Positions 586-51,646 of a stretch of DNA of 64,000 bases are shown here, piece after piece (the stretch's first letter is position 1; each line of letters begins with the position of its first letter). Under the pieces are notes generated by a model that saw only the letters and a list, made by a program, of their open reading frames with translations, made no database searches and had not been told where the DNA came from. The translations under genes and the position numbers were made by a program. Location of the stretch: assembly GCA_963792265.1 (NCBI GenBank), contig CAWBVP010000002.1:101331-165330 (forward strand), in the 5' to 3' direction. The DNA is from an uncultured Gemmatimonadales bacterium (GTDB lineage Bacteria; Gemmatimonadota; Gemmatimonadetes; Gemmatimonadales; GWC2-71-9).

Positions 586-1853
586 TTGGTGTCTGTCCCG
601 ATTGCGCCGGTCCTCTCGTGCGCTCCTCGGCTTGCGTCAGCTGCGCTCAGTGTGGCTGGGGACAATGCGGGTGAAGGAGGCGGGGCGGGGCTGGGCGGAG
701 CGGGGCGGACGGGCAGCAACAGCAACCGAGAAGCGGAGCTCAACTGGACTTACTGCCCCGCCGCCCATCCGCCCAGAGGGCACCCGCCCGCTGCCCGCCT
801 ACCCCTCCTCGACCAGCGCAGCCGGGGCACCAAGTTCATCGAGCTATCGGTAAACTCGGTGCTCAACACTCCAGCCTCCACCGGCATGGGGTTCTGGTCC
901 ATCAATCCGTATGTCGGTTGTGAGTTCGGCTGCACCTACTGCTATGCGCGGGATACTCATCGGTGGGCAATGGAGCGGCGGGGCAGCGGGGAGCGGGGCA
1001 GCGGGCGGTAACAGCACACCGGATGCTTTCGAGCAGCGGAGCGATCTGCCCCGCCGCCACCGCCGTTCCGCTGCCCGCCTGGGAGGCATTCGAGAAAGAA
1101 ATCCTGGTGAAGACCGAAGTCGCCGCAGTGCTCGCGCGCACGCTCAATCCCGCCCGGATAGCCGGTCACTCCCTGGTCATCGGCACCGCTACCGATCCCT
1201 ATCAGCCGGCTGAGCGGCGGTTCCAGCTCACCCGCCGGATTCTGGAGGTACTGCGCTCCTATCACGGGCTCTCGATCAGCATCATCACCAAGTCACCCCT
1301 CATCACCCGCGATCTCGACCTGCTGCAGGCGCTATCGAAACACAATGAGGTGAGCGTCAACATCTCACTGGCCACGGCGGACTCCCGGCTCGCCCGCCGG
1401 TTGGAGCTTCGCTCACCGGTTCCGGGAGCACGGCTCCGGGCTCTCCGCCGGCTCAGCCAGAGCGGCATTTACGCGGGGCTCCTGATCGCGCCGATCGTCC
1501 CTGGCATCACTGATGATTGGGCCGGGTTGGCCCGGCTGATGGAGGCGGCCAAGGAGGCGGGTGCCCGCTACGTGGTCGGGTCGGCGCTCCGGCTCGGCCC
1601 CGCAGCGCGGCACCGCTTCCTTCCCCACCTCGAGCGGGAGTTTCCCGAGCTGGCCGAGCGGTATCGACGGCACTATGCCGGCAAGGACCATGTCAGCCAG
1701 AGTTACCAGGACGCTCTCAGCCGGCGGCTGCGCGCGTTGCAGCAGGCGTACGGCTTTGCGGTTGATGAAGGCATGCGAAGGCGGCGTCAGCTCGAGGGTC
1801 GTATGCCCCGGAGAGAGACCGCCGGCCTTGCTGCACAAAAGGAGCTGCTATGA
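586..1853 (+). CDS. radical SAM protein, SplB/COG1533-like (DNA repair photolyase family)
   Basis: Radical SAM cluster NPYVGCEFGCTYCYARD, with the downstream body in ORF 963-1853. The frame breaks inside the 976-1079 insert. The true start is uncertain because conserved sequence begins near 810. Confidence 0.75.
676..800. repeat. degenerate copy of the G-rich/C-rich palindromic element
   Basis: G-tract left arm (676-716), core GCAGCAACAGCAACC, and a C-rich right arm ending CCGCTGCCCGCCT (753-800). It is open in the rSAM frame. Confidence 0.5.
976..1079. repeat. palindromic octamer-repeat element inside the rSAM gene
   Basis: Left arm of CGGGGCAG-type units, core AACAGCACACC, and a complementary right arm CTGCCCCG...CCGCTGCCCGCC. 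It is homologous to 9127-9232. Confidence 0.75.
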
Positions 1854-2203
1854 CCAACGCCGAGCACGACCGCCGCATCGATTACATCGAATTCTCAGTC
1901 AAGAGCGTCGCCGAAGCCAAGCAGTTCTATGGTGGCGCCTTCGGCTGGACCTTCGAGGATTACGGACCCGACTACGCCAGCTTTGCCGACGGCCGGCTGG
2001 CGGGAGGTTTCCAGACCGTACCGCAGGTGAAAACTGGCGGACCGCTGGTGGTCATCTATGCGGCCGATCTCGAAGCCATGGAGCGGCGGGTCAAACAAGC
2101 GGGAGGAAAGATCGTCCGCTCCATTTTCAGCTTTCCGGGGGGCCGGCGGTTTCACTTTGCCGACCCCAGCGGCAACGAGCTGGCGGTCTGGTCGGATAAA
2201 TAG
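1850..2203 (+). CDS. VOC/glyoxalase-family protein
   Basis: 117 aa. The pattern IDYIEFSV...FYGGAFGW...GNELAVW is typical of the VOC fold. Its start overlaps the rSAM stop as ATGA. Confidence 0.8.
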   Translation: MTNAEHDRRIDYIEFSVKSVAEAKQFYGGAFGWTFEDYGPDYASFADGRLAGGFQTVPQVKTGGPLVVIYAADLEAMERRVKQAGGKIVRSIFSFPGGRRFHFADPSGNELAVWSDK

Positions 2204-2215
2204 CTGGGAGCCCAT

Positions 2216-3394
2216 ATGCGTTCCGTATTGTTCGTCGATCCACCCGCTTTCTGTACTACCCTCGAGGGTCTGGCGCTGCCTGCGCTCCAGACCCGGCCCG
2301 TGGGGGTCGCTCCGCCCGGTGTCGATCGAGCCACGATTCTGGCGCTGTCCGCCGAGGCCAGGCGGGCCGGCCTGAGTCCAGGAATGTCGGTGCGGAAGGC
2401 TCAGCGGCTCTGTCCCGATCTTATTCTTCTGCCCCCCAACCCTCAGCTGTATGCTCGCGCTTCCCAGGCACTTCTCGAGATCCTGCGCTGCTTCGCTCCT
2501 ACCATCGAGCCCCGGGGATACGGTCATGCATTCCTCGATCTCACCGGAACCGGCCGGCTCTTCGGTTCGCCTCAGGACGTCGCTGCCTGTATCCGGCGGG
2601 AGGTGAGCGAGCGGCTGGGTCTTCCTCTCTCGGTTGGGATCGCCGCGAACAAGCTGGTGAGTGAGGCAGCGATTAAGGCGGGAAGGCGGGAAGGGGAACA
2701 GGAGCTGCTCTATGTCCCAGCAGGGGATGAGCGAGGTTTTCTCGCTCCCCATCCCCTCGAGGTGCTGCCCGAGCTCGATCCCCGTCTGCGCCAAAGGCTG
2801 GACGATTATCAGCTCGATCTCATCGGTGAGGTGGCGGCTATTCCCGAGAACGCGCTCTGCGCTGTTTTCGGCCGGCACGGCCGAGTGCTCCGGGCCCGGG
2901 CGCGAGGGATCGATTCCCGGCCGGTTTTGTCCCCCGAACGGCAATCCGAGTTTCACCAGGTTCATACGCTGACCACCGACACCAATGACGTCGGCGTACT
3001 GCACCCCCTGTTTCGGCTGATGAGCGAGCGACTGGGGCGGCGGCTGCGCCGGCGCGGGCTCACCGCCGGACGACTGCGGCTGCAGGCGATCTATGTCGAT
3101 TACACCGCCACCTCGCGCACCGTTCCCCTGAGTGCCGCCGTTCTCGATGCGGAGCTCTGGGGTGCCGCCCGGCGCGCCTTTGCGCTGGCCAACAGCAAAC
3201 GGTTGGCCGTGCGGACTGTCGCCCTCACCCTGGACCAGTTGTGGGAGGCTGAGGCGCAGCTGGACCTGTGGGCGGGCGAGCGAGACGGACCGGCGGACCG
3301 GCCAACTCCAGCATGCCCTCGACCAGATTCACCGCCGGTGGGGAATGCGGAGCGTCGGGCGGGGGATGGCCCACCTCTCGCTGCGCCAGGCTAA
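2216..3394 (+). CDS. imuB: Y-family DNA polymerase homolog, ImuB-like (catalytic residues lost)
   Basis: DinB-like fold (LPLSVGIAANKLVSEAA). The N-terminal DMD motif is replaced by VDPP, and SIDE is replaced by GYGH (EPRGYGHAFLDL). The C-terminus shifts frame near 3290, giving LQHALDQIHRRWG in ORF 3132-3476. Confidence 0.65.
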   Translation: MRSVLFVDPPAFCTTLEGLALPALQTRPVGVAPPGVDRATILALSAEARRAGLSPGMSVRKAQRLCPDLILLPPNPQLYARASQALLEILRCFAPTIEPRGYGHAFLDLTGTGRLFGSPQDVAACIRREVSERLGLPLSVGIAANKLVSEAAIKAGRREGEQELLYVPAGDERGFLAPHPLEVLPELDPRLRQRLDDYQLDLIGEVAAIPENALCAVFGRHGRVLRARARGIDSRPVLSPERQSEFHQVHTLTTDTNDVGVLHPLFRLMSERLGRRLRRRGLTAGRLRLQAIYVDYTATSRTVPLSAAVLDAELWGAARRAFALANSKRLAVRTVALTLDQLWEAEAQLDLWAGERDGPADRPTPACPRPDSPPVGNAERRAGDGPPLAAPG

Positions 3395-5017: not shown

Positions 5018-5111
5018 GGGGTTCCTATTGGCTGAGTCACGAAACATACTTCGCGGCTTTATTTCATGAGTTCGTGTTATTCAGCTGATTGCTAATAGTC
5101 GATAGTCCGGT

Positions 5112-5665
5112 ATGGCCCAAACCTATTGCGATGTGGCACCGAGTCACCAATGGCATGGGCCGTACCATGATCGGGAGTATGGCTTTCCCCTCGAGAGTGA
5201 TGCGGAGCTGTTCGAGCGGCTCATGCTCGAGATCAACCAGGCCGGGCTCTCCTGGCTCACCATTCTCAAGAAGCGGGAGGCATTTCGCCGGGCCTATGGC
5301 GGCTTCGATCCTGAGGTGGTAGCGGCCTACGGCGCCCGCGACCGCAAGCGGCTGCTGAACGACGCGGGAATCATTCGCAACCGGCTGAAGGTGGATGCCG
5401 CCATTGCCAACGCCAAAACAATTCTGGAGCTCCGGAAAACCCATGGATCGTTCGCCGGCTGGCTGGCCGCTCATCACCCGCGATCGAAGGAGGAGTGGGT
5501 CAAGCTCTTCAAGCAGACCTTCCGCTTCACCGGCGGTGAGATCGTAGGCGAGTTTCTGATGAGCATCGGCTATCTCCCCGGCGCCCATGTCCCCAGCTGC
5601 CCGGTATATCAGACAGTCCTTCGCCGAAACCCGGCCTGGTCGGTTAATCCGGGGAAAAAGCGTGA
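5112..5665 (+). CDS. tag: DNA-3-methyladenine glycosylase I
   Basis: YHDREYGFP, ELFERLMLEINQAGLSW and GGEIVGEFLMSIGY match Tag. There is no in-frame stop before the hydrolase, so the end is approximate. Confidence 0.85.
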
Positions 5666-5705
5666 GCGGGGAATGAAAGGCGTAAGCGGGAGTTGGGTGA
5701 GCGGG
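5660..5705. repeat. GCGTGAGCGGG / GCGTAAGCGGG / GGTGAGCGGG stop-codon-bearing motif cluster
   Basis: Three direct copies of GTRAGCGGG lie at the tag/hydrolase junction. Confidence 0.5.
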
Positions 5706-6464
5706 CCCGTCGGGGCCCTTTGGGTGTCGGACGGCGGACGAGAAGGGCCACCGGTAGTGTTGGTGCACTCACTGGCGGGAAACTCGACCCATTGGGATCG
5801 ACAACTGGAACACCTGCGGCCGAAACACCGGGCCGTCGCGCTCGATCTTCGGGGCCACGGGCAGTCGGAGCCACCCAGGAATGGCGACTACTCGATCGCG
5901 GGAATGGCCGGCGACATTGCGGCGGTGGTGGATACCCTGGGCCTGGATCGGTTCGTGCTGGTGGGTCACAGCATGGGCGGTGGAGTGGCGCTGACCTACG
6001 CCGGCGTTCATCCCGATCGGGTAGCCGGCCTGCTTGCTGGTGGATCCCATCGGCGATGGGAAACAGATCCCGGCCGCCGAGGCTGGAGCCTTTCTCGCCG
6101 GGACTCGAATCGGACTATGCACCACCATGATCCGGCAATACTGGACCGGCATCGCCGGGCCGAATAGTGCCGTTCGGGAGCGGCTGCTCGCCGATCTCGG
6201 CGCGATCCGAAGGAAGCCGTGCTGCAGGTGCTGCGGAGCGTGATGCAGTTCGATCCCGATCCCCTCGCTGGCACGGTACCAGGGGCCCGATGCTGTCGAT
6301 CGTCACCCCGCAGAACGATGCCGGTTCAGCCTGCACCGGCTGGGCCAGCGGATTTCCCCACCGGAGTGGTGACGGGCACCGGCCACTGGATCCAGCTCGA
6401 TCAGCCAGACGAGTTCAATCGATTGATCGATGAGTTTCTTGAAAACAGCGTGAGCGGGACGTAG
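5673..6464 (+). CDS. alpha/beta hydrolase
   Basis: VVLVHSLAGNSTHW, nucleophile elbow GHSMGG, and C-terminal HWIQLDQPDEF. The sequence is spread over ORFs 5112-6167, 6034-6243 and 6219-6464, implying at least 3 frameshifts. Confidence 0.75.
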
Positions 6465-6490
6465 GAAAGCGTTTGTAAGCGGTAAGCGGG
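6448..6490. repeat. GTRAGCGG motif cluster
   Basis: GCGTGAGCGGG and the tandem GTAAGCGGTAAGCGGG lie between the hydrolase stop and the dnaE2 start. Confidence 0.45.
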
Positions 6491-6495
6491 CGTAG

Positions 6496-9400
6496 ATGTT
6501 CACCCACCTCCACGTCCACTCCCATTTCTCCTTCGGTCTCGGGGTCTCCAGTCCCGAGGCGCTCGCGGACGCCGCGGCGCAGCGGGGCTTCCGGGCGCTG
6601 GCCTGCACCGACACCAACGGGGTCTACGGCGCGGTCGAGTTCCAGCGCGCCTGTGCCGCCGCGGGCGTGCGCCCCATCCTCGGCGCGCACCTCGTCGCGA
6701 ACGGCCAGGAGACGGTAGCGCTCGCCACCAACGAGCAGGGTTGGGCAGCGCTGTGCCGTGCCATTACTCGTATTCATTGGGAGAGTAGCGGAGCCCGGAC
6801 GCGTGCCTGAGGGCGCGCAAGGGGTGGAAAGGGGTGTCAGGCGCGACCCGACGAGTATGCCGTCCGCGCTGACATCCTTGGCCACTGATCGTGACGGCCT
6901 CATCCTTATATCTCGCGACATCGTATTCCTGGAAGAGACGCTGCGGCTCAGTGGCCCTGCAAACCTCTACGCCGAGCTGCGGCCCGGGAGAGCGCGCCAC
7001 GCGGTGCTGGCCGCCGCCCGGCGACTCCGCCTTCCCGTCGTCGCCACCAACGGCGTGGTGGCCGCGCGAGCCGAGGAATGGAGCCGCCACCGGCTGCTGC
7101 GCGCCATCGCCCTGAATACCACCCTTTCATCCCTGCCGGCAGAAGAGGTCTGGCCTCCCCAGGCGTGGCTCTGCTCCGGCGACGAGCTGGCCCGCCACTT
7201 TCCCGACTGCCCCGAGGCCATTCGGGCAGCGGAGGAGATCGCTGAACAGTGCAGCTACACCATCCCGGTGGGCCGGCGCACGGTGCCGCCTCGGGTTGCC
7301 GATACCGATTCCGCTTTTGCGCAGCTCCGGGAGATGACACTGCAAGGCGCCCGCTGGCGTTATCCGGTTGTCACCCCAGAGCTGCAGGAGCGGTTGGAGC
7401 TGGAGCTCGGGATCATCGCGCGGAAGGGATTTGCCGACTACTTCCTCGTGGTGCGTGACATCGTCCGCAATGGCCCCACCCACTGCGGCCGGGGGTCAGT
7501 CGCCAATTCGGTGGTGAGTTACTGCCTCGGCATCACCCACGTCGATCCCATTCGCTCCCAGCTCGTGTTCGAGCGCTTTCTCAACCTGGAGCGCAGCGAT
7601 CCGCCCGACATCGATCTCGATTTCCCCTGGGATGAGCGCGACAAAGTGCTGGAGTACGTCTTCCGCCAGTATCCCCGGCTTCATTCCGCCATGGTGGCCA
7701 ACCATAACTGCTTTCAGCCCCGAGGCGCCTTGCGCGAGGTGGCCAAAGTGCACGGCAGGCCGGCCGGCGAGATCCGGGAGGTGACCCGGCGGATTCCCTT
7801 CTTCGAGGATGGCGAGCGGCAGCTCCCCGACCTGATAGCGACTCACCCCAACTTTCAGGGCCTGAGTCTGGCCAATACCTGGCAGGAGTTTGCCCGCCTG
7901 GCCGTGGGTCTGGTCGGGATCCCCACGGCACTTGTCGGTCCATGCCGGCGGAGTCGTGATCACTCCCACCCCGCTCACCGACTATGTGCCGGTGGAGCGG
8001 GCGGCCAAGACCCTCGAGTGCAATCCCGATCTCGCGGTTCCGGTCATCCAATTCGAAAAAGATGGTACCGAAGACGCTGGCCTGGTGAAGATCGATCTCC
8101 TCGGCAATCGCTCGCTGGCGGTGATCCGCGATGCCATCGAGGCGGTCCACGGCCATACCAACTACCGGATCGACTATACCTCGTCTACCGCCGGCGACGA
8201 CGAAGCGGCCAAGGAGCTGTTCCGCACCGGCAAGACCATGGGCGTCTTCTACACCGAATCCCCCGCATCCCGGCTCCTTTGCGCCAAGAGCCGGGCGGAC
8301 ACATTCGAGCTGCTGGTGCTGAACACCAGCATGATCCGTCCCGCCTCGAACAAGTACATCCAGCTTTATCTAGAGCGGTTGCGCAACGGCGCCCCCTATG
8401 AGCCGCTCGATCCGTGTCTCCGCGACACGCTGGAGGAGTCGTTCGGGATCATGGTGTATCAGGAGGACGTGGTGAATGTCTGCGCTACCTTCGCCGGGCA
8501 TGTCGCCCGCCACCGGCGACGGACTCCGCAAGGCGCTCTCCAAGAAGCGGCCCGCCAAGCACCTCGGCGCCTACGCCGAAGAGTTCTTCACCGGAGCCAT
8601 GCGGCTGGGCCGCGATCCGGACGCGGCCAAGCGAGTGTGGGAGATGATCATGTCCTTCGCGGGATACAGCTTCTGCAAGGGACACTCGTGCTCCTACATC
8701 CAGGTGGCCCAGCACGCGTGCGCGCTGCGAGCCCATCACCCGGCGGAGTTCATGGCCGCGGTGCTGTCCAACGGCGGTGGATTCTACCAGCCGTTTGCCT
8801 ATGTGGCCGAGGCCATGCGCATGGGGCTCAGGGTGCTTCCGCCCGACATCAATGCCAGCGATTTCCGCTGCAGCGGGAAGGGACGGGAGATTCGGATCGG
8901 GCTGCAGTATATCAAGGGGCTCTCGGCCGATGGGTAGAGCGGGTGATGACTGCGCGGGTCGTCCTTGCGGAGCGAGGCGGAAGCCGGACCGATTTCAGCA
9001 GCATCTTTGACCTCCGCGCGCGCACCGGAATCGCTCCCGTCCGACCTGCGTCTCCTGATCAAGGTCGGCGCGCTCGATTCGATCGCCCAGGGCTGGACCC
9101 GGCCGATGATGCTGTGGATGGTGGATCGGCGGGGCAGCGGGGCAGCGGGGCCGCGGGCAGCAACAGCACACCAACGCGAGGTCGTCATTCGGAGTCGACC
9201 GCCCCGCTGCCCCGCTGCCCCGCTGCCCCGCTGACTGGTTCGACGACCTTCCGCCCGCCGTCCCGGCTCTCAAGGAATACTCCCCCGAGCGCCGCCGCCG
9301 GGAGGAATACGAGGCCCTCGGGTTCATCAGCGACGCGCACCCGATGCTGCTCCACGCCGACCGGCTGCGACATTTTCGGCTGTGTCCCAGCACCGAGCTG

Positions 9401-9686
9401 CACCAGCACATCGGGCCGCCACGTGCTGGCTGCCGGGATGCTCACCACGGCCAAGCCGGTGCATACCAAGGCAGATGAGCCGATGGAATTTGTGACCTTC
9501 GATGATGGACACGGGTTAATCGAGGCGGTGCTGTTTCCGAAGGTCTATCGTGAGCGGGGTCACGTTCTGTTCGACCAGGGGCCCTTCATCTTCCGAGGCA
9601 AGGTAGAGGAGGAGTTCGGGGCGGTGACGCTCACACTGACCCACCTGGACCGGCTGGAGCGGGCCCGGGTCAGAGCTATCGCAGTG
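6496..9686 (+). CDS. dnaE2: error-prone DNA polymerase III alpha homolog (DnaE2/ImuC)
   Basis: PHP start MFTHLHVHSHFSFG, then GRGSVANSVVSYCLGITHVDP, PDIDLDF, VKIDLLGNRSLAVI, GYSFCKGHSCSYIQVA and an OB-fold tail. Pieces lie in at least 6 frames (6496-6810, 6758-, 7890-, 8476-8937, 8965-9234, 9233-). The stop is approximate. Confidence 0.8.
9127..9232. repeat. palindromic octamer-repeat element inside dnaE2
   Basis: A (CGGGGCAG)n left arm, core AACAGCACACC, and a (CCCCGCTG)n right arm. The arms pair perfectly over at least 20 bp. Confidence 0.8.
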
Positions 9687-10157
9687 AGCCGGCCGAGCGC
9701 TCGAAGACCATGTCGCCTTCCTGGGCAAAGCGGACCTTGCGGGTGCCGATTGGCGTGCGGAACGTGGCCCGGCCCCGGACCGCGAAGTTGTGGGTACCGG
9801 AGCCGAAGAGCCTGGAGATGCTCGGGCGTGGCGTGCTCCTCCAACGCCAAGGCCAGCGCCACCGTCGACACCGTGTCGGTCGCCACCTGCACGGTGCTGT
9901 CGCGCTTGAGACTGCCGATGGGAACCCCATCCAGACGAAGCGACAGCTCGACCTGCTCGGTGGAGAGCGGATAGTCGTTGGAGTTTTTCACCGCGAGGGC
10001 AATGATGACTGGAGTTGCTGACTGGCTGGATGCCTCCAGATTGAGCCGTGATCCCCGCGACCGTGACCACCGGGTCCTCGTACAGCCAGAGGCCGACCGG
10101 AGTACAGGCAGTTACCCAGCACAACCACGCCGCTCGACGCCATCCCGTGACTGCCAT
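9676..10157 (-). CDS. LEA_2/NDR1-HIN1-like lipoprotein
   Basis: Lipobox WLCWVTAC, then WLYEDPVVTVAGI, ALAVKNSNDYPL and FAVRGRATFRTPIG. It is spread over 3 frames. Confidence 0.5.
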
Positions 10158-10187
10158 TACACTCCCTGCTCCGTGGAGAAATGAGTA

Positions 10188-11364
10188 ATGCGTCTTTCCC
10201 CCATGCTGGCAGGACTCGGACTCTCGCTCAATCTGGTCCTGGGCGCCAGCGCCTGCAGCTCTCAGACCGGGCCGACCCTGCCGCAAGGGAGCGGCGCCCG
10301 GCTGCAGCAGGTGGTCGCCGGCCTGACCTTTCCGCTTTATCTGACGGCTCCGCCGGGGGACCTGAACCGGCTCTTCATTGTCGAGAAGGCCGGCAGCATT
10401 CGCATCGTCAAAGCCGGCACTCTCCTGCCCACCGCGTTCCTCGACATCAGCCCACAGGTATCCAACGTGCGGCGAACAAGGATTGCTCGGCCTGGCCTTC
10501 GATCCCAATTACGCCGCCAATGGACGTTTCTTCGTCCACTACTCCGACCCCCTTGGCAATACCCGGGTTTCCAGCTTCCAGGTTTCAGCGGACCCCGACA
10601 TTGCCAACCCGGGCAGCGAACAGATCATCCTGACCGCCACTCAGCCCTACGCCAACCACAACGGGGGACAGCTGCTGTTCGGCCCGGATGGGATGCTCTA
10701 CCTCGGCCTGGGCGACGGCGGGTCGGGCCGGCGATCCCCAGGGCCGGGGCCAGGATCGCTCCGACCTGCTCGGCTCCATCCTGCGCGTGGACGTGCAAGC
10801 CGGCTCTTCCTACACCGTGCCGGCGGACAATCCGTTCGTCGGGCAGGCCGGCGTTCGACCGGAGATCTGGAGCTACGGGCTGCGCAATCCCTGGCGCTTC
10901 AGCTTCGACCGGGGTAACGGGAGATCTGTACATCGCCGACGTGGGCGAGTCCCGGTTCGAGGAAGTCGACGTCGTCTCCTGCGGCGGAAGGAGCCGGCAA
11001 AGGCTTGAACTACGGCTGGAACCTGATGGAAGGGAAGCATTGCTTCATCACCAGCCCGTGCAACGAGACCGGACTCACCCTGCCGGTGCACGAGTACACC
11101 CATGGCCAGGGCTGCTCCATCACCGGCGGCTACGTCTATCGCGGCGCTGCCGTTCCAGCGCTTCAAGGCCTCTACTTCTTTGCCGACTTTTGCCAGGGGT
11201 GGGTTCGCAGCTTTCGCCTGGCGGGCGGGGCCGCCACCGAGCTGACCGACTGGCGGGTGCTCCAACCCGGTGGCTCGATCACCAGCTTCGGGGAAGATGC
11301 CGCCGGCGAGCTCTACCTGATGTCCACCAACGGCGGGGTCTTCAAGATCGTGCCGGAGCCGTGA
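10188..11364 (+). CDS. PQQ-dependent sugar (sorbosone/glucose) dehydrogenase, beta-propeller
   Basis: Lipoprotein signal, [48 protein letters not shown] and NYGWNLMEG. There are at least 4 frameshifts. Confidence 0.75.
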
Positions 11365-11370
11365 GCTCGT

Positions 11371-12300
11371 ATGGCAGGGATCAAGGCTGAGCCGTACAGC
11401 CTCGCAGATTTCGAGCGGCTCCGGGATCGCATCCCTCCGTTGATCCGCTTCGGGACCTCGACCTGGAATTATCCTGGCTGGCGTGGCTTGGTGTACCACC
11501 AGGACTATGGTCCCAAGGGGGCGGCGGCGAAGATGCTGAAGGAGTACGCCGCCTTTCCGCTCTTCGGTACCGTGGGGGTCGATTCCAGCTTCTACGGCCC
11601 TCCGACCGAAGCGGTGCTTCGAAGCTATGCCGAGCAGCTCCCGCCGGGCTTCCCCTGCGTGAGCAAGGTGTGGAGTCAGCTCACGGTGCACACCTTTACC
11701 AAGGCCCAGGATCCGGACCGCGCCGGTAAGGTCAACCCGGATTTCCTCAATCCGGATCTGTTCATCGAGGAGATTTACCAGCCGTACCAACGCCACTTCA
11801 GCGCGAACACCGGCCCCTTCGTCTTCGAGTTCCAGACCATCGCCAAGTCCAGCGGCATCGGTCCCCAGCGCTTTGCCGACCGGCTGGACGAGTTCTTATC
11901 TGCGCTGCCCCGCGAAGGGCAGTATGCCGTCGAGATCCGGAACGATGAGTTTCTCACTCCCATGTACTTCGCGGTGCTGCGAGAGCACGGCGTGGGCCAC
12001 GTCTTCAACTCGTGGACCCGGATGCCTCCCATCGGTCATCAGCTCGATCTGCCCGGGTCGATTCCGGCATCATTCATCGTGGCCCGTGCGTTATTGCGGC
12101 CGGGACGCACCTACAATGAGGCGGTGGACGCCTTCGCCCCCTACGACCGGATTCGGGAGCCGAACCCAAAGCTGCGGCGGGATCTGGTTCGGCTGGTGCA
12201 GGCAGCGGTAAATCAGCGGATTCCGGCCTATCTACTGGTCAATAACCGCACGGAGGGCAGCGCGCCGCTGACGATCGCGGCGATCGCCGAAATGCTTTGA
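11371..12300 (+). CDS. DUF72 (UPF0759) family protein
   Basis: Intact 309-aa ORF. FGTSTWNYPGW and VEIRNDEF are typical of DUF72. Confidence 0.8.
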   Translation: MAGIKAEPYSLADFERLRDRIPPLIRFGTSTWNYPGWRGLVYHQDYGPKGAAAKMLKEYAAFPLFGTVGVDSSFYGPPTEAVLRSYAEQLPPGFPCVSKVWSQLTVHTFTKAQDPDRAGKVNPDFLNPDLFIEEIYQPYQRHFSANTGPFVFEFQTIAKSSGIGPQRFADRLDEFLSALPREGQYAVEIRNDEFLTPMYFAVLREHGVGHVFNSWTRMPPIGHQLDLPGSIPASFIVARALLRPGRTYNEAVDAFAPYDRIREPNPKLRRDLVRLVQAAVNQRIPAYLLVNNRTEGSAPLTIAAIAEML

Positions 12301-13184
12301 TCAGTCGTCCTTGTCCGGCAGCCACAGGCTGACGCGACCACTTGCGCTCCTCGCCCGGCTGCAGGGTCTGCGCCGTATGCCAGTCCCGAACCGCGATGTC
12401 GAGGCGATCCGGGCGCTCCGATGCAGGGCTCCAGCGCGAGATTGTAGTAGGGAGGGCGGCCCGGCGGTGCCCAGCCCCGGCAGTTGATCCAGACCCCCAC
12501 CTGGGGGACCTGGTCGGGTGAGACCCCATCTCCAAACGCTCTCCCCGTCGGGGGTCGGTCAGAACCATCCGCCCCTCGCCGGCCAAAATCGCCGAAGAGC
12601 TTCACCGCCCAGCCCCCGCTCTCCGGAAAAGTGAATCGCCCGGCATCTCCTCCGATGGCGCCGGGCCAGCTCACTACATCGTTCTCGCTTAGGTCATCGC
12701 GCCCGTGCACCGCGGCGATCTTCACCTGGGTGACACCCGGAAGCTCCAGCACCGACCCTGGCTGAACGTTGAGCAGCGGGTGGGCCGACCAGATCCAGGG
12801 GAACGGCGTCGCGCCGGTGTGGCGGAGCGCATAGCTGCAGTCGCACGACCGGCTCGTCCGGGTCGAGGGTGACCGTGCGCTGAAACTCGTAGGGGAATAC
12901 GGTACCTTGCGCCGAGCCCGCGAGGGTGGTTCCCGTCTGCAGTCTCGTAGACCGAGCTGTCCCAGGGAGCGCTCCACAACTCGCCATGGTCCGGAAGCAG
13001 TGGTGTCCCCGGCGGCGCTCCGGGAATCGGGACACGCCCCCACGGTAGGAAAGCACTCGTCCCAGCCCCCGCTGTCCGCGGTCTCCACGTATGAGGCCCC
13101 CGGTTTGGGCGGCGCCAGCGGGATCTGGTCGCTGCGCCAGAGCCACTCCCGCCCGTTGAGCCGCCGCAGGTTGGTGAGCTTCAT
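12301..13184 (-). CDS. galactose-mutarotase-like (aldose epimerase superfamily) protein
   Basis: MKLTNLRRLNGREWLW, GGWDECFPTVG and YYNLALEPCIGAP. There are several frame changes. The reconstructed end ...SLWLPDKDD stops at 12301. Confidence 0.4.
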
Positions 13185-13254
13185 CCCGATGGCCGGGACC
13201 GCCACGATTTCAACCTGAGTCGAGCGAAGGGCGACTGCTGGAAAGCCGGAGACG

Positions 13255-13948
13255 TTAGTCTGACGGTAAGGACATGCCCAAAAGCTCGCACCGGCCAGGT
13301 GCCGAAGCCGGCGACTTTGGCCGGCACCGCAAAGAAGCGGAAATCCTGCTGAGGAAGGCTGGCGAGATTGCACATGTGCTCGACGATCGGCACCTCGGCG
13401 CCGAGCAGGGTCGAATGGACCGGGCGGGTCGAGATCCTCGGTGTCGTCGATGTTGAGGGAATCGATGCCGACCAGCGTGACGCCCTGACTCACCAGATAT
13501 TCCGCCGCATCGCCGCTGAGAAACGGATGCCCTGAGAGGTAGCGCTCGGTGCGCCAGTGCGCGTCCCACCCGGTCTGCACCAGCACCGCCTTGCCCCGGA
13601 CCTCCACGTCTTCGAATGCCGACCGGCCGATCGGGCGCCCGGCGCCCGGCGGGATCCGCACCACTACCGCATCGAGATCTGCCAACGATTCCAGCGGAAG
13701 TTGAGCCAGGTCCTTGCCATCGGCATACCGATGGAACGGCGAGTCGATGTAAGTGCCGGTGTTGGCCACCATCTCGATCTTGCCGATCTGGAACTCCACC
13801 CCTGGCGCATACCGGCTCCGGGAGGCCTCCCGACTCAGGTAGTCGCAGATGATCGGGCCGGGAAGACCGGGATACGTGGTCATCCCGTGCTCGACGGTAT
13901 GGCTGAGGTCGACTAAAGCGGCCCGCTGCCCGCCTGCCCCGCTGCCCC
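13255..13948 (-). CDS. cyclase family protein (kynurenine formamidase-like)
   Basis: VDLSHTVEHGMTTYPG, GTYIDSPFH and LVGIDSLNID. The N-terminus is formed by a half palindromic element, and the C-terminal frame is uncertain. Confidence 0.6.
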
Positions 13949-13956
13949 GCCTACCC
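13918..13956. repeat. single arm of the octamer-repeat element
   Basis: The minus strand reads GGGTAGGCGGGGCAGCGGGGCAGGCGGGCAGCGGGCC. It spans the ispH stop and the cyclase 5' end. Confidence 0.55.
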
Positions 13957-15159
13957 AAGCGCCGCCTCCAGATCCACCCCGGCGACGGCACAGATCCGCG
14001 CGATGGTCTCACCCATCTTGTTGTTCGGGGTCGACGCCCCGGCGGTGATCCCGATGACGCTTGAAGACCCCAGCCATCCCTCGGTCACTGACCTCCGATT
14101 TGGTGCCGATCGGCTGGTGCCGGATTGCGCCGGTGGTCGACATCCACCGCTTCGGCATCCTCGATGTGGTAGGCGAGCCACCCCGTGCTGCCGGACCAGC
14201 GCAGCCAGGTGGCAGGTATTGCTGGAGTTGTATCCGCCTACCACGACCATCAGGTCGAGCGGCTCCTGCAGCAATGCGAGCACCGCGTCCTGCCGCTCCT
14301 GGGTTGCGGAGCAGATGGTGTCGAAGGAACGAAAGTGCTGGTCAATGGATTCGGCCCGTACCGCCGGACCATGCTCTTCCGCACCTCCTCAGCGATGGCC
14401 AGCGATTCGCCGGAGAGCATGGTGGTCTGGTTGGCCAGTCCTACCCGGGTCAGGTCCCGCTCGAAATCGAAGCCGGGTGACACCGCCTTGCCGAACCGGG
14501 CTTCCAGCGGAGCGAAGGTCTCCGCCCCGCTCGATGAAGTCGCAGATCATCCGAGCTTCGGTCATGTCGAGCACCACCAGATAGCGGCCGCCCGGATACT
14601 TCATGACCTGGCTGGCCGTGGCCTTGGTCTCTTCGTGGTAATGCTTGCCATGGATGATGGCGGTGAAGCCGTCCCTGGCGTAACTCTCGACCCGCTTCCA
14701 GACGTTCAGCACCGAGCCGCAGGTGGTGTCCACCAGCACGCAGCCGATAGCCCGGAGCCGCTCGAAGTCCCCTATGGTCACCCCAAAGGCCGGCATGATG
14801 ACCACGTCGTCCGGCGTCACCGCGGAAAAGTCGAACTCACCACCATCGCGGTGGTCCAGGAGGGTGATCCCCATGTTGCGGAGCTTCTCGTTGACGTGGG
14901 GATTGTGAATGATCTCGCCCACCAGGAAGAGCCGGCGGCCGGGAAACTTGGTCCGGGTCTCATAGGCGTATTCGACGGCCCGATCCACCCCGTAGCAGAA
15001 GCCGAATTCGCGGGCCAGGCGGAAGGTCAGCCGCCCTACCTGTAGCCGATAATCGTTGGCCTTGAGCGACTCGACGATGCCGCTGTGGTAGTCGGCGCTG
15101 AGCCGGCCGGCGATCTCGCTCTTGAGGCCGAAACCCTTACGGAAGTAGGTGTTCTCCAT
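13951..15159 (-). CDS. ispH: 4-hydroxy-3-methylbut-2-enyl diphosphate reductase
   Basis: FGFCYGVDRAV, VGEIIHNPHV, CGSVLNVW, GLANQTTML, VVGGYNSSNT and GASTPN. At least 3 frameshifts (14389-15159, 14250-14483, 13951-14283). Confidence 0.85.
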
Positions 15160-15162
15160 GCG

Positions 15163-15766
15163 TCAATGTACTACGGTGCAACCGGGCTCGGGCGAGGGAT
15201 GAATGGTAAGCCCCTGAAAGGTCCCCCGGACCGTCACCCGTTGGGTATCGATCACCGAACGCGCGCCTGCCGTCACACTGCCGCCTAGCTCGCCTGACGG
15301 GGAACGGTCCAGAAAAACCGTCCCGGTGTCTCCCTGAAAGCCCTTGACCGCATTTTGGGTGAACCACCGGAGGGCCACAGCCGCAGCCGGGGGCAGGCTC
15401 TCTGCCCGGGGAGGATCCACCACCCGGTACCGCCCCGGCGAGGAGAGTGTCCTTAGGGTAGAGCGCGAAGGCGATGCCGGTATCGCCCTGAACCGCGCGG
15501 ATCTCCAGTACTCGTCGGTCGGGGCACCATTCAGCGCTGGCCGGGGCCGAGATCTTTCCCTGGTCTGGTCCGCTCCAGGTTGCTTCCAGGTGGCCGCCTT
15601 GGGCCGGCCTTTGCGGCAGCCAGCCACAGCCGCCGAGCAGGACAGAAAGGGCAACCCACCCCGAGGCGATACGATGCCTCAGGAGGTCGGGAGCCGGGTG
15701 AACGTGGTGTGTTGAAGAAGTAGGAGAAGGAAGGTGGTGCCGAGAAGCTACGAGGTTTGCGCCCAT
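15163..15766 (-). CDS. hypothetical lipoprotein
   Basis: Lipobox ALSVLLGGCGW. The two frames 15137-16108 and 15163-15654 join near 15450. The start is uncertain. Confidence 0.3.
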
Positions 15767-16205
15767 TTGCTCCGGCCGTCGCGATGAAGCCCGTACGCCT
15801 TCAGCCGGCGCCAGAGGGTGGTACGGCTGATACCCAGCGAACGAGCGGTCTCGGCGAGCTTCCAGCCGTGCGCGTCGAGTGTCTTGACGATAGCCTCTTT
15901 CTCTCCGCGGCCAACGTAGTGGCGCCGGCCAGTCCGGGAATGAACATGGCCTCCCCCAGCTCGAGCCCGCCAACCCGCAGAGGGCGGAGGCGGCCGCCGA
16001 GGGCGGCCAACCGGGGCTGGAGATCGGGTGCCCCTTCGGACAGATCCATGCCGGACAGAGCCTCCCGGGCCGGCTGATTGGAGTACAGCAGCCGTCCTTC
16101 GACGTCAAAAACCACGACTCCCTCGCTGAACCCGTCCAGCAGGGCCTTGGCCAAGGGGGAAAAGACTGAGGGCATAGTCGGATAAAGCGACAGGGTCTCG
16201 GGCAT
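15748..16205 (-). CDS. PAS-like sensor fused to a Fis-type HTH regulator
   Basis: The N-terminus has GVVVFDVEGRLLYSNQPA. After a frameshift the C-terminus reads EAIVKTLDAHGWKLAETARSLGISRTTLWRRLKAYGL. Confidence 0.55.
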
Positions 16206-16295
16206 AGTTCAAAGATACGGGTACAGGGGCCGTCTGGTTTCCTGACTATCTAGACGCTCAGGACCCGGCATGGTGCACAATGCGCCGTTGCGCCT

Positions 16296-17219
16296 TTACT
16301 CTCCCACCGGTTCTACCGGGATCTCCCGATGCTGCCGAAGCTCGGCCAGAATCACCAAGCCCAGGCCGGTGAAAATGGCCAGTCCGGCAACCACCGCCCG
16401 GGTGGTCAGCCGCTCACCCTGGAGCACCAGTGGCGCCACCGCCGCCGCAATGAGCGGCTGGAGGTAGATGTAGACTGTTACCAGGTTGGAGGACACTCGT
16501 TGCAGCGCCCAGATGTTGAGCAGGTAGCTCACGATGGTGGGGAAGATCACGATGTAGCCCACCCAGAGCCACACGGGACCGCTGATGGTCGACAGCTGCA
16601 AGCTCCGCATGGCGATCACCCCGAAAGGCAGGACACCGAACGAGGCGAACAACATCACATAGAAGCTCACCGTGATCGGCTGGTACCGGCCAACCACCGA
16701 TCGCGCGTAGAGGAAGTAGGCGGCATAGCAGACCATGCCCAGCACGATGAGGGCGTTCCCCAGCGCCACGTCGGGAGCGAGTGAGATGCGATCGGGACCG
16801 ATCAGGTAAATCGTGCCCAGAGCAGCCAGGCCAATGCCGGCGAACTTGAGCGCCGAAGGCGGCTCCCTCCGGGTGAGCACCCCGCCAAGGACCGTAAAAA
16901 CCGGGACGGTAGTCACCAGAATGGTGGCGTTGATGGCGGTGGTGTGCCGTAACCCATAGAGGAAGAGGGTCTGGTTGGCAGCGATGCCGAGCAGACCAAG
17001 TACGGCCAACCGGAGCAGGTCGCCCCGGTCCCGCACCCACTGACCTCCGGTTGCCGCATTGACGAGAAAGAGGACTGCGGTGGCTCCCAGCACCCGAAAG
17101 CAGACCAGGGCACCAGCAGGGAAATGCGGAAGCACAAACCGGCCGGCGATAGCCAGGCTGGCAAAGAGAAGCTGGACCACCACGAGGGCAAGGTGGACCA
17201 GCGGCTTGGCCGGGGACAT
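16296..17219 (-). CDS. DMT-superfamily (EamA) transporter
   Basis: Intact 307 aa with 10 predicted TM segments and duplicated EamA-like halves. Confidence 0.85.
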   Translation of the reverse strand: MSPAKPLVHLALVVVQLLFASLAIAGRFVLPHFPAGALVCFRVLGATAVLFLVNAATGGQWVRDRGDLLRLAVLGLLGIAANQTLFLYGLRHTTAINATILVTTVPVFTVLGGVLTRREPPSALKFAGIGLAALGTIYLIGPDRISLAPDVALGNALIVLGMVCYAAYFLYARSVVGRYQPITVSFYVMLFASFGVLPFGVIAMRSLQLSTISGPVWLWVGYIVIFPTIVSYLLNIWALQRVSSNLVTVYIYLQPLIAAAVAPLVLQGERLTTRAVVAGLAIFTGLGLVILAELRQHREIPVEPVGE

Positions 17220-17240
17220 CCGGTCGGGTCGAGGCCCTAG

Positions 17241-19861
17241 CTACCGACGCGGGCGCCCCCGAGGTCCGCCGCCTCGCCGGGCCCGATGGCCCTGCCGCTG
17301 ACGCCGCCGTCCGCCGCGGTGGCGGCCAGGATCAGAGTCCTCGTCAGCGTGGGTCCGGGGAGACCGCCGCAACATTTCTTGCAGCGCAGGGATGGTATCC
17401 GCCAGGATCGGCGGATGGCGCCCCCGCTGTACCGCAAAACGGAGGGGCCGATCCAGCCGCGGCAGCTCGTCCGCCCGTAGCCGCTTGGCCTGGCCCTCCC
17501 GCAGCCGGACCCGGGCGACGCCCTCTCCGTTCTGGATCTCGTAGTCGAGCGGCACCGCGTCGCCCCGGACATGCAGGCTCCCGGGCAACGCCTGCAGCCG
17601 CTCCCGGTCTTCGACGCCCACCAGCTCCGCCGGGTCGAGCACGATCCGGGTGCGGAGGAACTCATCCCAGCTGCTGACGCCTTCGAGCTGGCGTCGGATC
17701 AGGGCGCGCAATGCGCTCCGGCGCCAGCTCTTTCAGGGTGCCGCCCGACCGGCGCCAGAGCTCATCCAGCTCCGCCAGGGTCCGGCGCAGCCGGTTCTGA
17801 TCGGGATGGATGGTCTCTCCCCTGATGAGCGCCTCGGTGAGCGCATCACGAGCTGCCGGCAGCAGCTCGGCGGGGATCTTTCCCTCGATCGGCTCGATCT
17901 CGGTGTCCAGCTCGAACCCGAAGTAGCTGCGCCGGCGCTCGACCATCAGGGCCTGATGCTTTCGGGGCCCGCCCAAGACGATCCTGAGGTGACCCCAGCG
18001 TGGCATACTTCCGCACCAAATCGTACGACAGAGTGGTTCCCTCGATTGCGGCGCGGGGGACCCCGAAACGATCAGCGAAGTAGCGCAGCGTCCCGGCCAC
18101 CGCACCCCAGCTTCCCGCCACCGAGGTCTTGGAGACTCTCGCCTCCTGACCATCGGCGGTGTGCTCGTCGATCACCAGGTCGAACGGCATGAAGCGGGCG
18201 AGCAGATCGGCCCAGTCCCGCCGCACATCCTTCGAGGCGTAGGGCAGCTGCTTGGGCAAGGGCAGCTCGAGCGACCGGTAGACTGACGCCAAGCCCAGGG
18301 CAGTGTCCTCGATCGCCTTCACCAGGACCCCACGACGCTCGGCCCACTCGGCGAGACCATCCTCGAATAGATGGCGGGGCAAGCCATACACCTCGCCCAG
18401 GTAGCCGTGCTGGTTGACCGCCTCGGCATAGAGATTGTAAGCCGTGAGGTGGTCACTGCCGTTGACGATCACCCCATGGAGGTCGCGCTCCTCCCGGGTC
18501 ATCCGATGGAGCGACTCGATGTTGGAGGAGACGGCAACCATCGGAATCAGCTCTTCGCCCGCATGGACCAGCAGCTCGCCCCAGGGCCGTTCTACCGGAA
18601 GCGCCTCGACCTCTCGTCCATAGCTGGTCAACTTCCCGTTCTCGATCAGGCCTCGGCTGGTGAGCAGTGTGATCGCCCGATTGTAAGCGGTGCGATCGAG
18701 CGGCACCGGAAGGTCCAGATCCCTGGCGTCGACCCCCAGTGCAGCACAGGTGATGGCAACCCGTTCGGCGTCACCCGCCAACTGGAACTCAGGCGGGGTG
18801 GGCCGAAGCGATTCGAACACGAGGTTTCGGTCACTCAGAATGACCACCTCGCCATTGGGCACCCGGCCGTGGACCCGGCCGGCCATCTGGAGAATCTCGT
18901 TGGCACCGAGATACAGCCGGTGCAGCACGTTGCGGCCGCGGTCGACCACATTGCCGTAGCGGGCGTCGTAGATCACAACGGTATTGAGACCTCGAACGTT
19001 GAGCGCCGACTGGCCGGCCGCGGTCATCGCCAACAGGAAGGGACGCTCGACCTCGCCCTCCAGAAAGGGGCGAATCACTCTGATCGGCTCCCCCCGTGAT
19101 AAAACGCCGTCGTGAGCCGGGGCCACTGGGATCCGAGACCCTCGGCCAGCTTTTCGACTTCGGCGCGGGTGGGAACGAAGACCGCGACCCCCCGCTTCTC
19201 CTTCATTAGATGGCGGATATAGCGGTCGTTCAGGAATTCGTCAGGCTGCTGGGGGAGCACCTGCACTTTGGCCTTCAGGGCGGGATCGAAGGCCTGGGTC
19301 ACCAGCACTTCCTTAGCTGTTCAGGTATTGAGCGTAGAACGTCGGATCCACTGTGGCGCTCAGCCAGATGAAGCGGCAGCCCGCCCGCTTGCCCAGCGCA
19401 AGGCAGAGCTCCAGCTCGGCCGAGGTCTGGTGGATCTCGTCGACCACGATGGTGTCCCGTCCGGTGATCAGGTCATCCTGAAACCAGCGACGAGCTATAC
19501 CGGTGGTCACGATCACCACATTCCAGTTGGGAGTTTCCGGGGTGGCCTCCCGCTCGCGATTGACCACTCCGGCGTAGAGCGGCTCCCGCAGAATGGACTC
19601 GGCGATGGATCGGATACCCAGTGTTTTACCGGTGCCGGTTCCCGCCACGATGCCGAAGGCAATTCCCGCTCCGGCCCACTGGCGCAGCTCCTCGCCGTGC
19701 TCCCGCTCGAGCAGGGTATCTACCTGGAGACTGAGAGCCAGCTCGATCGTCTCGCACGCCGCCCGGGTGGGAGCGATGACGATAATCCGGCCCTTGGGAT
19801 GGGGAGCGAGGCGATAGGCGTTGGGATCGGGCGGGAGATGGTGGTCGCGGGAAGGATGCAT
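17241..19861 (-). CDS. DEAH-box (HrpA/HrpB-like) helicase-related protein
   Basis: Walker A GTGTGKT, the DEIH box, and MTAAGQSALNVRG..QMAGRVHG. Pieces are 19313-19861, 19075-19308, 17846-19126, 17662-18153 and 17241-17711. Confidence 0.75.
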
Positions 19862-19872
19862 GCGTAAAGGAA

Positions 19873-19985
19873 GGCGGTAGGGCGGTAGGGCGGTAGGGCG
19901 GCAATTCAGGAACGGCGAATGCAGGGGAACTCACCGCTCTTATTACCAGAACTCTACCGCCTTACCGCCCTACCGCCTTACCGCC
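19873..19985. repeat. intergenic palindromic element with GGCGGTAG octamer arms
   Basis: (GGCGGTAG)x3.5 at 19873-19901 and the complementary (YTACCGCC)x4 at 19954-19985, with a 52-nt AT-richer centre. Confidence 0.75.
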
Positions 19986-19987
19986 TT

Positions 19988-51487: not shown

Positions 51488-51502
51488 GCGGTAACCCGGC
51501 AG

Positions 51503-51529
51503 GGCTGGAGGTTTCCCCTCCAGCCTTTT
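51503..51529 (+). terminator. intrinsic terminator-like hairpin after xoxF
   Basis: GGCTGGAGG-tttcc-CCTCCAGCC followed by TTTT. Confidence 0.6.
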
Positions 51530-51646
51530 ACCGGGATACATTACAGGAAGTGAGAGACGGCGCCGGGCAGCTGTTCGCTCCGGCGCCGTTCTTGTTCCAC
51601 TGCCGGAGGGACTTGCCGGTGGTACCCGCTGGCTGGCCCCTCCCAC

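Follow-up and report, generated by a model that had tools for sequence, protein, structure and literature searches.

What is a long, nearly perfect hairpin of tandem octamers doing inside the coding sequence of an error-prone DNA polymerase, at a point where the reading frame is broken? The locus lies in a 64,000-nt stretch of DNA from an uncultured Gemmatimonadales bacterium (GenBank assembly GCA_963792265.1, contig CAWBVP010000002.1, forward strand positions 101,331 to 165,330), which is referred to below as the window; the gene is dnaE2 and the hairpin is designated element B. An original prediction, made from the letters of the sequence, had noticed this element in the variable DnaE2 linker between ...RPMMLWMVD and DWFDD, related it to a second copy in a radical-SAM gene (rSAM; copy A), and taken both for independent insertions of one phase and one size in a DNA-damage locus. 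The observation is real and element B is present at the predicted site. The repair of the frame proposed with it, a peptide of 35 codons and the common phase are unsupported, and the link to the DNA-damage locus is the interesting, unexplained part. In the reading that we consider probable, element B is a palindromic repeat of long standing, selfish or neutral, that has been inherited vertically and is tolerated in a flexible linker, and the frameshift in the window is an error.

Anatomy and fold of element B

Coordinates of all features are collected in Table 1. Element B is 106 nt in size, with a stem of ~30 bp and a loop of ~40 nt; it follows the codons CTG TGG ATG GTG GAT and its ends are ...GTGGATCGGCGGGG and CCCCGCTGACTGG. 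The predicted layout of left arm, core and right arm was recovered, with about four GCGGGGCA units, AACAGCACACC and (CCCCGCTG)x4. Tandem Repeats Finder (TRF) assigned a period of 8 to both arms, with 4.2 copies on the left (9129-9161) and 4.1 copies at 100% matches on the right. The inverted repeat measures 32 nt at 94% complementarity, and its left side occupies 9126-9157. Perfect arm pairing over at least 20 bp had been claimed and holds: the exact reverse complement of the 20-mer GGGGCAGCGGGGCAGCGGGG is found twice, at 9202-9221 and 9210-9229, and the window contains 11 near-matches, where 0.13 would be expected from shuffles. Folding of the single strand, which the prediction had also suggested, gave -90.3 kcal/mol versus -62.7 ± 4.1 kcal/mol for shuffled sequences (z = -6.75). 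Rfam models yielded zero matches at gathering score across the whole window.

The core fits the start of the loop seen throughout the family described below, (A)ACAGCACAC(C). The semi-conserved motif closing the loop is based on two alignments (A3 and A4), and the model consensus at this position is cgGAgcaaAC. Element B is stop-free in every sense frame; its left arm is devoid of T and its right arm of A. In the downstream frame the right arm reads PAAPLPRCPA and then DWF.

Table 1. Repeat elements, their parts and their host gene. Positions refer to the window unless a locus is named.
Feature	Position	Strand	Description
Host gene dnaE2 (error-prone DNA polymerase III alpha)	6490-9690	+	~7 frame segments by three-frame translation; homologs are Gemmatimonadales DnaE2
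Element B, hairpin repeat	9127-9233	+	inside dnaE2, from ...RPMMLWMVD to DWFDDLPP...
Element B, left (5') arm	9127-9161	+	~4 tandem G-rich octamers GCGGGGCA, last ones degenerate
Element B, conserved loop core AACAGCACACC	9162-9172	+	identical in rSAM copy; many orthologous and unlinked copies
Element B, variable loop part	9173-9201	+	ends in semi-conserved 3' motif GGAG(T/C)(C/A)GAC, 9191-9199
Element B, right (3') arm	9202-9233	+	(CCCCGCTG)x4, complement of left arm
Copy A, radical-SAM gene	969-1077	+	directly after CxxxCxxC motif; model match 975-1080, 63.7 bits, E 8e-11
Degenerate third copy, core AACAGCAACC	672-800	+	in or upstream of N-terminal part of rSAM ORF; model match 692-774, 37.6 bits, E 1.4e-5
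Second variable DnaE2 site (site 2), between L.AR and PF(T/R)S	8947-9002	+	short extra segment only; 27 extra nt versus L002
Element C, solo right-arm-like array (GCCCGCTG / CCCCGCTG units)	13905-13957	+	21 nt longer than in L002
Intergenic element D, (GGCGGTAG)n / (CTACCGCC)n arms	19870-19988	+	architecture as element B, other octamer; model match 42.8 bits, E 1e-6
CHPERSEGS element loci	~10450-10640 in L025, L028, L030, L034, L037, L039, L040, L041, L048, L051		dnaE2 site 2 (window equivalent 8947-9002)

A dispersed repeat family

To identify relatives of element B, a covariance model (R1) was used whose seeds were 11 copies from metagenome contigs, none of them in dnaE2 or rSAM, retrieved by a DNA pattern scan that was blind to location. 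An earlier filter (AGCACAC plus a periodic upstream arm) was too strict, with 7 matches, and was replaced by this model. Note that the octamer CAGCACAC, invariant across the 11-sequence seed alignment, belonged to the retrieval pattern. R1 matched element B at 94.6 bits (E 6e-17) over its full length of 1-108, and the opposite strand at 65 bits. Because element B and copy A are both recognized by a model of unrelated copies, they are members of one repeat family. The kinship claimed for them is thereby upheld; the two also share CGGCGGGGCAGCGGGG in addition to the core.

The comparison set consisted of 80 related loci from metagenome-assembled genomes (MAGs), each carrying an orthologous dnaE2. 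In these, R1 gave 115 matches over both strands, corresponding to ~60 distinct elements. A generic script applied to the same loci and the window (1.3 Mb) found 81 hairpins whose arms are complementary tandem arrays of 7-, 8- or 9-nt units. Arm units include GCGGGGCA, GCGGGTAA, GCGGGGAA, GGCGGACG, GGCGGTAC, GGACGGAAA, GGCGCAGG, GTGAACR and GGCTATT. About 38 of the 81 lie in stop-free open reading frames (ORFs) with a coding-like signal in third-position GC content (GC3), and ~30 have no spanning ORF.

Typically, a family member has three to five tandem G-rich 8-mers on the 5' side of the stem and their complement on the 3' side, enclosing a loop of 40-50 nt that starts with AACAGCACACC and often ends with GGAGCARAC. 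The core AACAGCACAC and this 3' loop motif adjoin unrelated genes in both orientations; neighbors of dispersed copies include an ABC transporter gene, tgt (within the ORF), dxs, thiG, ogt, a sigma-70 gene and a cation efflux gene, and several of these copies begin directly after a stop codon. A loop motif common to copies at separate loci cannot be made by growth in place; hence the family has spread. Although it is read in three phases, the core is retained within rSAM, at two sites of dnaE2 and in copies between genes; judged from these alignments, it is constrained at the nucleic-acid level or by origin. In the literature on Gemmatimonadetes repeats, MITEs (transposable elements of the miniature inverted-repeat type) and repetitive extragenic palindromes (REPs), we found no description of the family of element B, which is apparently undescribed and specific to Gemmatimonadales.

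Orthologs, reading frame and the frameshift in the window

The organism is a member of the Gemmatimonadales, with best protein matches at 82-83% identity, and the window is colinear with two Gemmatimonadales MAG contigs, L001 and L002, at ~85% nucleotide identity. Both relatives have intact dnaE2 ORFs (1065 and 1070 aa, respectively). In DnaE2 of L002 the element site is at ~aa 885-921, between the HHH_6 domain (794-872), which it directly follows, and the C-terminal region, and the element itself is nearly identical to that of the window. When dnaE2 orthologs with and without the element were compared, as originally suggested, an insert of 30-40 aa was found at exactly the position of element B in many DnaE2 homologs, while others have none or one arm only. 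Predicted database proteins include the insert, and many of the 80 MAG loci carry a hairpin in the linker. All 80 orthologous loci have a linker whose length is divisible by 3 (132 nt in L002), versus 133 nt in the window.

As predicted, ORF 8965-9234 runs through element B and terminates at TGA 9232-9234; the frame downstream is offset by +1. The open part of the upstream frame extends to 9234 and that of the downstream frame begins at 9110, so that the dnaE2 ORF is restored by loss of any single nucleotide from 9110 to 9231. Removal of a C from the C4 run at 9226-9229, the repair originally chosen, is thus arbitrary, and the 35-codon peptide that depends on it is probably wrong over most of its length. 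In every core-bearing dnaE2 ortholog, the frame in which core and right arm are read (...AGQQ(Q/R)HT...RPAAPLPRCPADWF) corresponds to the downstream frame of the window. By this comparison, the frame-breaking indel is most likely located in the left arm or at its junction with the flank. Aligned with L002, the window shows two additional nt at 9127 and lacks one at 9155.

Three-way alignments with L001 and L002 revealed 37 single-base indels in 13 kb that are private to the window (22 in 5750-12347 and 15 in 13112-19650), versus a handful in each relative. They are mostly insertions and are scattered across all genes. Because the frameshift at element B is one among these and the ORFs of the relatives are intact, alignment with orthologs makes it most likely a sequence error, and it is not informative. 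Sequence quality along the window is uneven, since the stretch 1071-3288 contains zero private single-base indels and 5750-19650 does not share this property. For annotators, frameshifts called within such G/C-rich hairpins of long-read assemblies should be considered likely errors. Two side observations concern sequence quality. Long ORFs further along the window (e.g. 49216-51852) appear intact. In ORF 5112-6167, part of a methyladenine glycosylase domain (profile positions 10-115 of 177) is joined to part of an alpha/beta hydrolase domain (1-102 of 245); the ORF is most likely two genes fused through frameshift errors.

The two copies had been described as inserted in the same phase and at the same size. 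In intact orthologs the core at the rSAM site is read AAC AGC ACA (NST; L002, L003), whereas in the dnaE2 linker it is read CAA CAG CAC ACC (QQHT); at site 2 the reading is NST in most copies, QQH in L013 and KAH in L016. Inserts measure 111-150 nt in rSAM versus 120-141 nt for most copies in the dnaE2 linker. An 8-nt unit cycles the arms through all three phases, and therefore only total length is constrained. Two signs had been named that would mark the copies as ordinary disruptive MITE insertions, namely no preference for one phase and no preservation of ORFs. The first was found; the second was not, as ORFs are preserved in the coding copies.

Neither are these recent, independent events. 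Loops resemble each other more between orthologs than between the rSAM and dnaE2 sites: the rSAM loop of the window resembles that of L003, and its dnaE2 loop that of L002. Because the sites are occupied in many diverged genomes and the loops follow orthology, both copies are old and vertically inherited.

Further evidence comes from elements with GCGGGTAA-type arms, in which one unit in three would set TAA in frame. This unit is mutated in L003, L011, L012 and L021, and its partner in the right arm is unchanged, leaving a mismatch. Since a stem mismatch is accepted at this point, ORF integrity outranks stem perfection. From the frames of its orthologs, element B is evidently translated within DnaE2 and is not disruptive. 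The predicted product is a Gly/Ala/Gln/Arg-rich stretch followed by a Pro/Ala/Leu/Cys-rich one, ~35-45 aa in total. No conserved peptide is present among the genomes compared; the arms vary and the core occurs in three reading phases.

Covariation of the arms

The octamer varies between genomes and the left and right arms remain complementary. In a test set of 17 aligned elements, 89.9% of cells were paired, versus 44-55% when the partner column was slid. Changes on both sides occurred in 9 of 21 pairs. The number of cells changed on both sides was 44, compared with 17.0 ± 3.2 in shuffles, and none of 500 shuffles reached this value. Stems contain 19 G:T(U) wobbles and 17 A:C mismatches. Because G:U wobbles are no commoner than A:C mismatches, there is no sign of selection on the sense mRNA; this symmetry fits a DNA-level process, or an absence of pairing selection beyond whatever mechanism matches the arms.

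Arm units differing by at most one mismatch made up 46% of unit pairs within the same genome, 32% at the same site in different genomes and 21% of unrelated pairs, values that are uncorrected for phylogeny. They amount to a weak trend toward homogenization within genomes. Template switching is known to homogenize and extend the arms of inverted repeats (PMC8604942, PMC13100816).

Concentration in the DNA-damage cassette

That the DNA-damage locus matters was strongly borne out. In the 1.3-Mb survey, 41 hairpins with tandem arms were counted in 400 kb of upstream cassette, 36 in 251 kb of dnaE2 and 4 in 651 kb downstream. The corresponding densities are 1.0, 1.4 and 0.06 per 10 kb, a local enrichment of ~20-fold. 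R1 gives the same picture, with only 4 of ~60 elements downstream of dnaE2. In the location-blind metagenome scan, 20 of 38 model-validated copies fell in three genes of this ~10-kb cassette (rSAM, 11; dnaE2, 6; Y-family polymerase gene, 3), with up to four copies on a single contig (L151). Sites that recur number at least six: rSAM has two of them, dnaE2 three (PHP domain, within HHH_6, linker) and the Y-family polymerase gene one, in its C-terminal part.

Other palindromes share these sites. An unrelated palindromic family (TCATCCYGAGSG..., read CHPERSEGS) has 18 copies in dnaE2, 7 downstream and 6 upstream, and uses the same two dnaE2 sites. A third motif, GGCGCGCAAGGGGTGG, recurs as well: six loci have it at the PHP site, and L068 has a further copy at site 2. 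On these counts, DnaE2 linkers are a general sink for palindromic elements. A scan for LexA-box-like sequences (CGAACN4GTTCG, 2 mismatches) returned 37 matches, versus 37 expected, and was uninformative.

Two details of these other palindromes were recorded. The CHPERSEGS element has the form TGTCATCCCGAGCG.AGCGAGGGATCTTGCC...GGGATGACA (CHPERSEGS...PRDDS), lies in frame at dnaE2 site 2 and sometimes has duplicated arms. The third motif takes the form GAGGGCGCGCAAGGGGTGG...GTCAGGCGCGACCCGACG at the PHP-domain site in the window (6795-6865), L002 (8291-8306) and L068 (8250-8265), and at site 2 in L068 (10508-10523).

Origin of element B and alternative explanations

Our favored account of element B, a persistent repeat without benefit to its host, would work as follows. 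The family may have been spread by a transposase acting on single-stranded DNA hairpins. Element B would be tolerated where it is because the linker between the helix-hairpin-helix domain and the C-terminal region of DnaE2 is probably unconstrained, and because the T-poor left arm and A-poor right arm are free of stops in the sense frames. Selection would then hold length at a multiple of 3 and purge stop codons. Tandem units would turn over by slippage, and the arms could be homogenized by intrastrand template switching or by hairpin correction; together these processes would yield arms whose sequence drifts and which nevertheless remain matched.

Several points weigh against this account. 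Neutral tolerance alone fails to explain why 20 of 38 copies lie in one ~10-kb cassette, or why density in and upstream of dnaE2 is ~20 times that downstream. Long retention of the 11-nt core in a fast-evolving linker hints at function. The dispersed copies alone speak for mobility, since no transposase turned up (none was searched for in the loci), nor any target-site duplication or clean pair of empty and filled sites. When filled and empty versions of dnaE2 site 2 and of the rSAM site were compared by eye, no target-site duplication was recognizable; note that boundaries there are blurred by G/C-rich flanks and remnants. Finally, the reading of the frameshift as an error depends on comparison with orthologs.

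The excess in the cassette leads us to a tentative proposal, which we hold at clearly less than even chances: that the SOS mutagenesis cassette (radical-SAM gene, Y-family polymerase, dnaE2) is a place to which hairpin-forming repeats are actively sent, or in which selection retains them. One possible route is a link between spread and the DNA-damage response, in which the cassette genes would be single-stranded or heavily transcribed; in another, the hairpin structures would restrain or modify the mutasome. If the proposal is true, the 2013 finding that several phyla have REPs in their repair genes (see below) would become a quantifiable, testable rule. The gathering of palindromic repeats in DNA-repair genes has never been explained, and with the present case the question comes within reach of experiment: whether insertion and SOS are coupled, what the stems do to mutasome expression, and how drifting arms stay matched. 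To the earlier observation the family adds a soil phylum with dozens of genomes, co-varying stems of tandem octamers with a conserved loop core, and a measured enrichment.

A rival reading, in which the hairpins are a cis-regulatory device of the cassette that is selected by the host, strikes us as unlikely. Here, long perfect stems in the mRNA or DNA of rSAM, the Y-polymerase and dnaE2 would throttle the mutagenic polymerases; possible routes are cleavage by a double-stranded RNA nuclease, ribosome stalling, or blocks to transcription or replication. Such a device would account for the concentration in the cassette by every count given above, for at least six recurrent sites kept across deep divergence, and for arms that co-vary around a core conserved in three reading phases; it would also agree with the judgment of Di Nocera et al. 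(2013) that REPs in repair genes, DnaE2 included, are non-fortuitous (PMC3733652). It sits poorly with the numbers of wobbles and mismatches, which carry no sign of sense-RNA selection, and with stems that degrade where a stop codon must be avoided. Many orthologs, including the whole L022-L055 clade at the linker site, have no element or one arm only. That at least one unrelated palindromic family is also concentrated in the DnaE2 linkers in question, and that the third motif recurs there, points to a feature of the gene and not of a single designed structure.

Growth in place without mobility is improbable. A short inverted repeat in the linker would expand by octamer slippage and by template switching between arms, and might be favored by error-prone synthesis near mutasome genes. 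Arm unit and copy number do differ among orthologs, copies cluster locally, and one-armed or short remnants exist in L004, L006, L015, L047 and L074, and in L001 at the rSAM site; short hairpins are visible by eye in the 'empty' rSAM sites of L031 and L048, and template switching is a documented means of extending such arms (PMC13100816, PMC8604942). However, this explanation leaves the shared 11-nt loop motif unaccounted for: a common core and 3' loop motif recur at unlinked sites, next to unrelated genes and in both orientations, and R1, built from dispersed copies, recognizes those in dnaE2 and rSAM.

Very improbable is a genuine frameshift, whether in a decaying dnaE2 pseudogene hit by a MITE-like insertion or as hairpin-driven programmed ribosomal frameshifting. 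The stop of the upstream frame at TGA 9232-9234, the +1 frame beyond it and the very stable hairpin at the shift would be in keeping with it, but there are ~6 more frame changes in dnaE2, neighboring genes up to 19.6 kb have similar private 1-nt indels, and 80 of 80 orthologs are in frame across the element. Moreover, no slippery heptamer was found 5' of the hairpin, and the stem spans the region of frame overlap, which is not the geometry of a frameshift stimulator.

We give least credence of all to G-quadruplex formation by the G-rich arm as a mode of action: a G3+N1-7 motif fits GGGGCAGCGGGGCAGCGGGGCCGCGGG (9131-9157) and the 5' arm of the opposite strand, and comparable G-rich heptamer arrays form quadruplexes in vitro (PMC4692102), but many orthologous arms, such as GGCGGACG, GGCGCAGG and GGACGGAAA, hold GG tracts only, so that complementarity is conserved and quadruplex potential is not, and a perfect complement ~45 nt away favors hairpin or duplex.

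Comparison with known repeats

Di Nocera, De Gregorio and Rocco (2013) reported that intragenic REPs are frequent in DNA synthesis and repair genes, including DnaE2, a pattern that is non-fortuitous and was left unexplained (PMC3733652). In these GTAG/CGTC-tagged REPs, as in our family, palindromes within coding sequence add residues and occupy similar sites in related species, and extragenic copies adjoin ORF ends and can overlap stop codons (PMC3733652). Gemmatimonadetes are not mentioned in that study (PMC3733652). A REP is a stem-loop of 20-40 bp, whereas element B has 106 nt, an octamer stem of ~30 bp and a conserved motif in its loop, and ends without GTAG or CGTC. Either tag can occur inside the arm units of related copies (element D, GGCGGTAG; L001, CGTCCGCC); GTAG, the tag of one REP superfamily, is present in each arm unit of element D.

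Rickettsia palindromic elements (RPEs) are ~100-150 bp long, lie in frame in unrelated protein genes, presumably at sites that the fold tolerates, and are translated (PMC10969869). Element B is likewise palindromic, in frame and predicted to be translated within its host ORF. RPEs belong to another phylum with AT-rich as opposed to GC-rich genomes, and are fixed sequences with a conserved peptide. Our family differs in its variable tandem octamers, a core used in three phases and concentration in one cassette; the two are set apart here by description.

A third point of comparison is offered by G-rich heptamer arrays, to which the cyanobacterial short tandemly repeated repetitive (STRR) heptamer arrays are a related case. 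Rehm et al. (2015) described (GGGAATC)n in Xanthomonas and GGGGA(C/T)T repeats in Nostoc, often as inverted pairs of arrays capable of forming stem-loops (PMC4692102). Inverted tandem arrays near ORF ends, sometimes over a stop codon, and quadruplex potential are common to both systems (PMC4692102), and element B consists of two convergent G-rich arrays of period 8 (9129-9161 and 9201-9233). In contrast, the heptamer arrays of a given genome are built from a single unit; they are for the most part intergenic, are under-represented in coding sequence, and have no described conserved loop core. The Gemmatimonadales family mixes 7-, 8- and 9-nt units, has a conserved loop core and includes many translated copies.

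REPINs of the REPIN-RAYT system are hairpin repeats that persist in a lineage by vertical inheritance and differ in sequence type by genome (PMC3116915, bioRxiv 10.1101/2021.07.10.451892). The family of element B shares this long persistence, vertical inheritance and genome-specific sequence. Unlike it, REPINs are extragenic and are made of two inverted REPs recognized by a single-copy RAYT, whereas the arms of element B are tandem arrays. Like MITEs, element B has terminal inverted repeats (the 32-nt arms), but its arms are variable and its loop conserved, the reverse of typical MITEs. The Gemmatimonadales family works like REPs, RPEs and heptamer arrays and is a member of none; its stems of tandem units and conserved loop core are combined with translation in any phase and with a concentration in one cassette that has been measured.

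Other elements in the window and related loci

Copy A also has a frame change in its left arm, where GCGGGG-AGCGGGG is one base short; the rSAM insert measures 122 nt in the window versus 123 nt in the L003 ortholog. The degenerate third copy has counterparts in L001, L005, L011, L013, L014 and L057, in which R1 matches ~250-290 nt 5' of the rSAM site.

Element D has (GGCGGTAG)x3.6 and (CTACCGCC)x4 as arms and a fold energy of -79.8 kcal/mol (z -7.4). None of its six frames is free of stops, and on the right it abuts the stop codon (19988-19990) of a minus-strand gene of the Omp85 family (Pfam Omp85). Element C sits in the N-terminal part of a minus-strand ORF with a cyclase domain (12228-14012). 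It was rejected as a family member (model score 17 bits, E 0.16) and is probably a one-armed remnant or an expanding array. A further model match at 29666-29755 (E 0.04) was rejected because it has no repeat structure.

At DnaE2 site 2, other genomes carry family hairpins in either orientation or an unrelated palindromic element. Hairpins with heptamer arms were also noted: (GGCTATT)n / (AATAGCC)n is intergenic, between divergent cassette genes, in L002 (6513-6627), L012, L013 and L018, and a decayed remainder of it lies at ~5030-5110 of the window. Another heptamer type, (GTGAACR)n, recurs in many loci ~1-2 kb 5' of this position.

Some elements are nested. In L103 (121-276), L116 (3537-3721) and L126 (~2814-2883), an octamer-arm hairpin has in its loop a CHPERSEGS-type palindrome, which directly follows the CAGCACACC core; in L116 the core is present on both sides, in inverted orientation. 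L035 has three dnaE2 hairpins (8229-8336, 8572-8669 and 10448-10541) with closely related arm units (GGACGGAC or GGACGGGC). In two of the three the loops are themselves palindromic (CGGCACAC...GTGTGCTG), which suggests a symmetric ancestral form of the element or homogenization within the genome.

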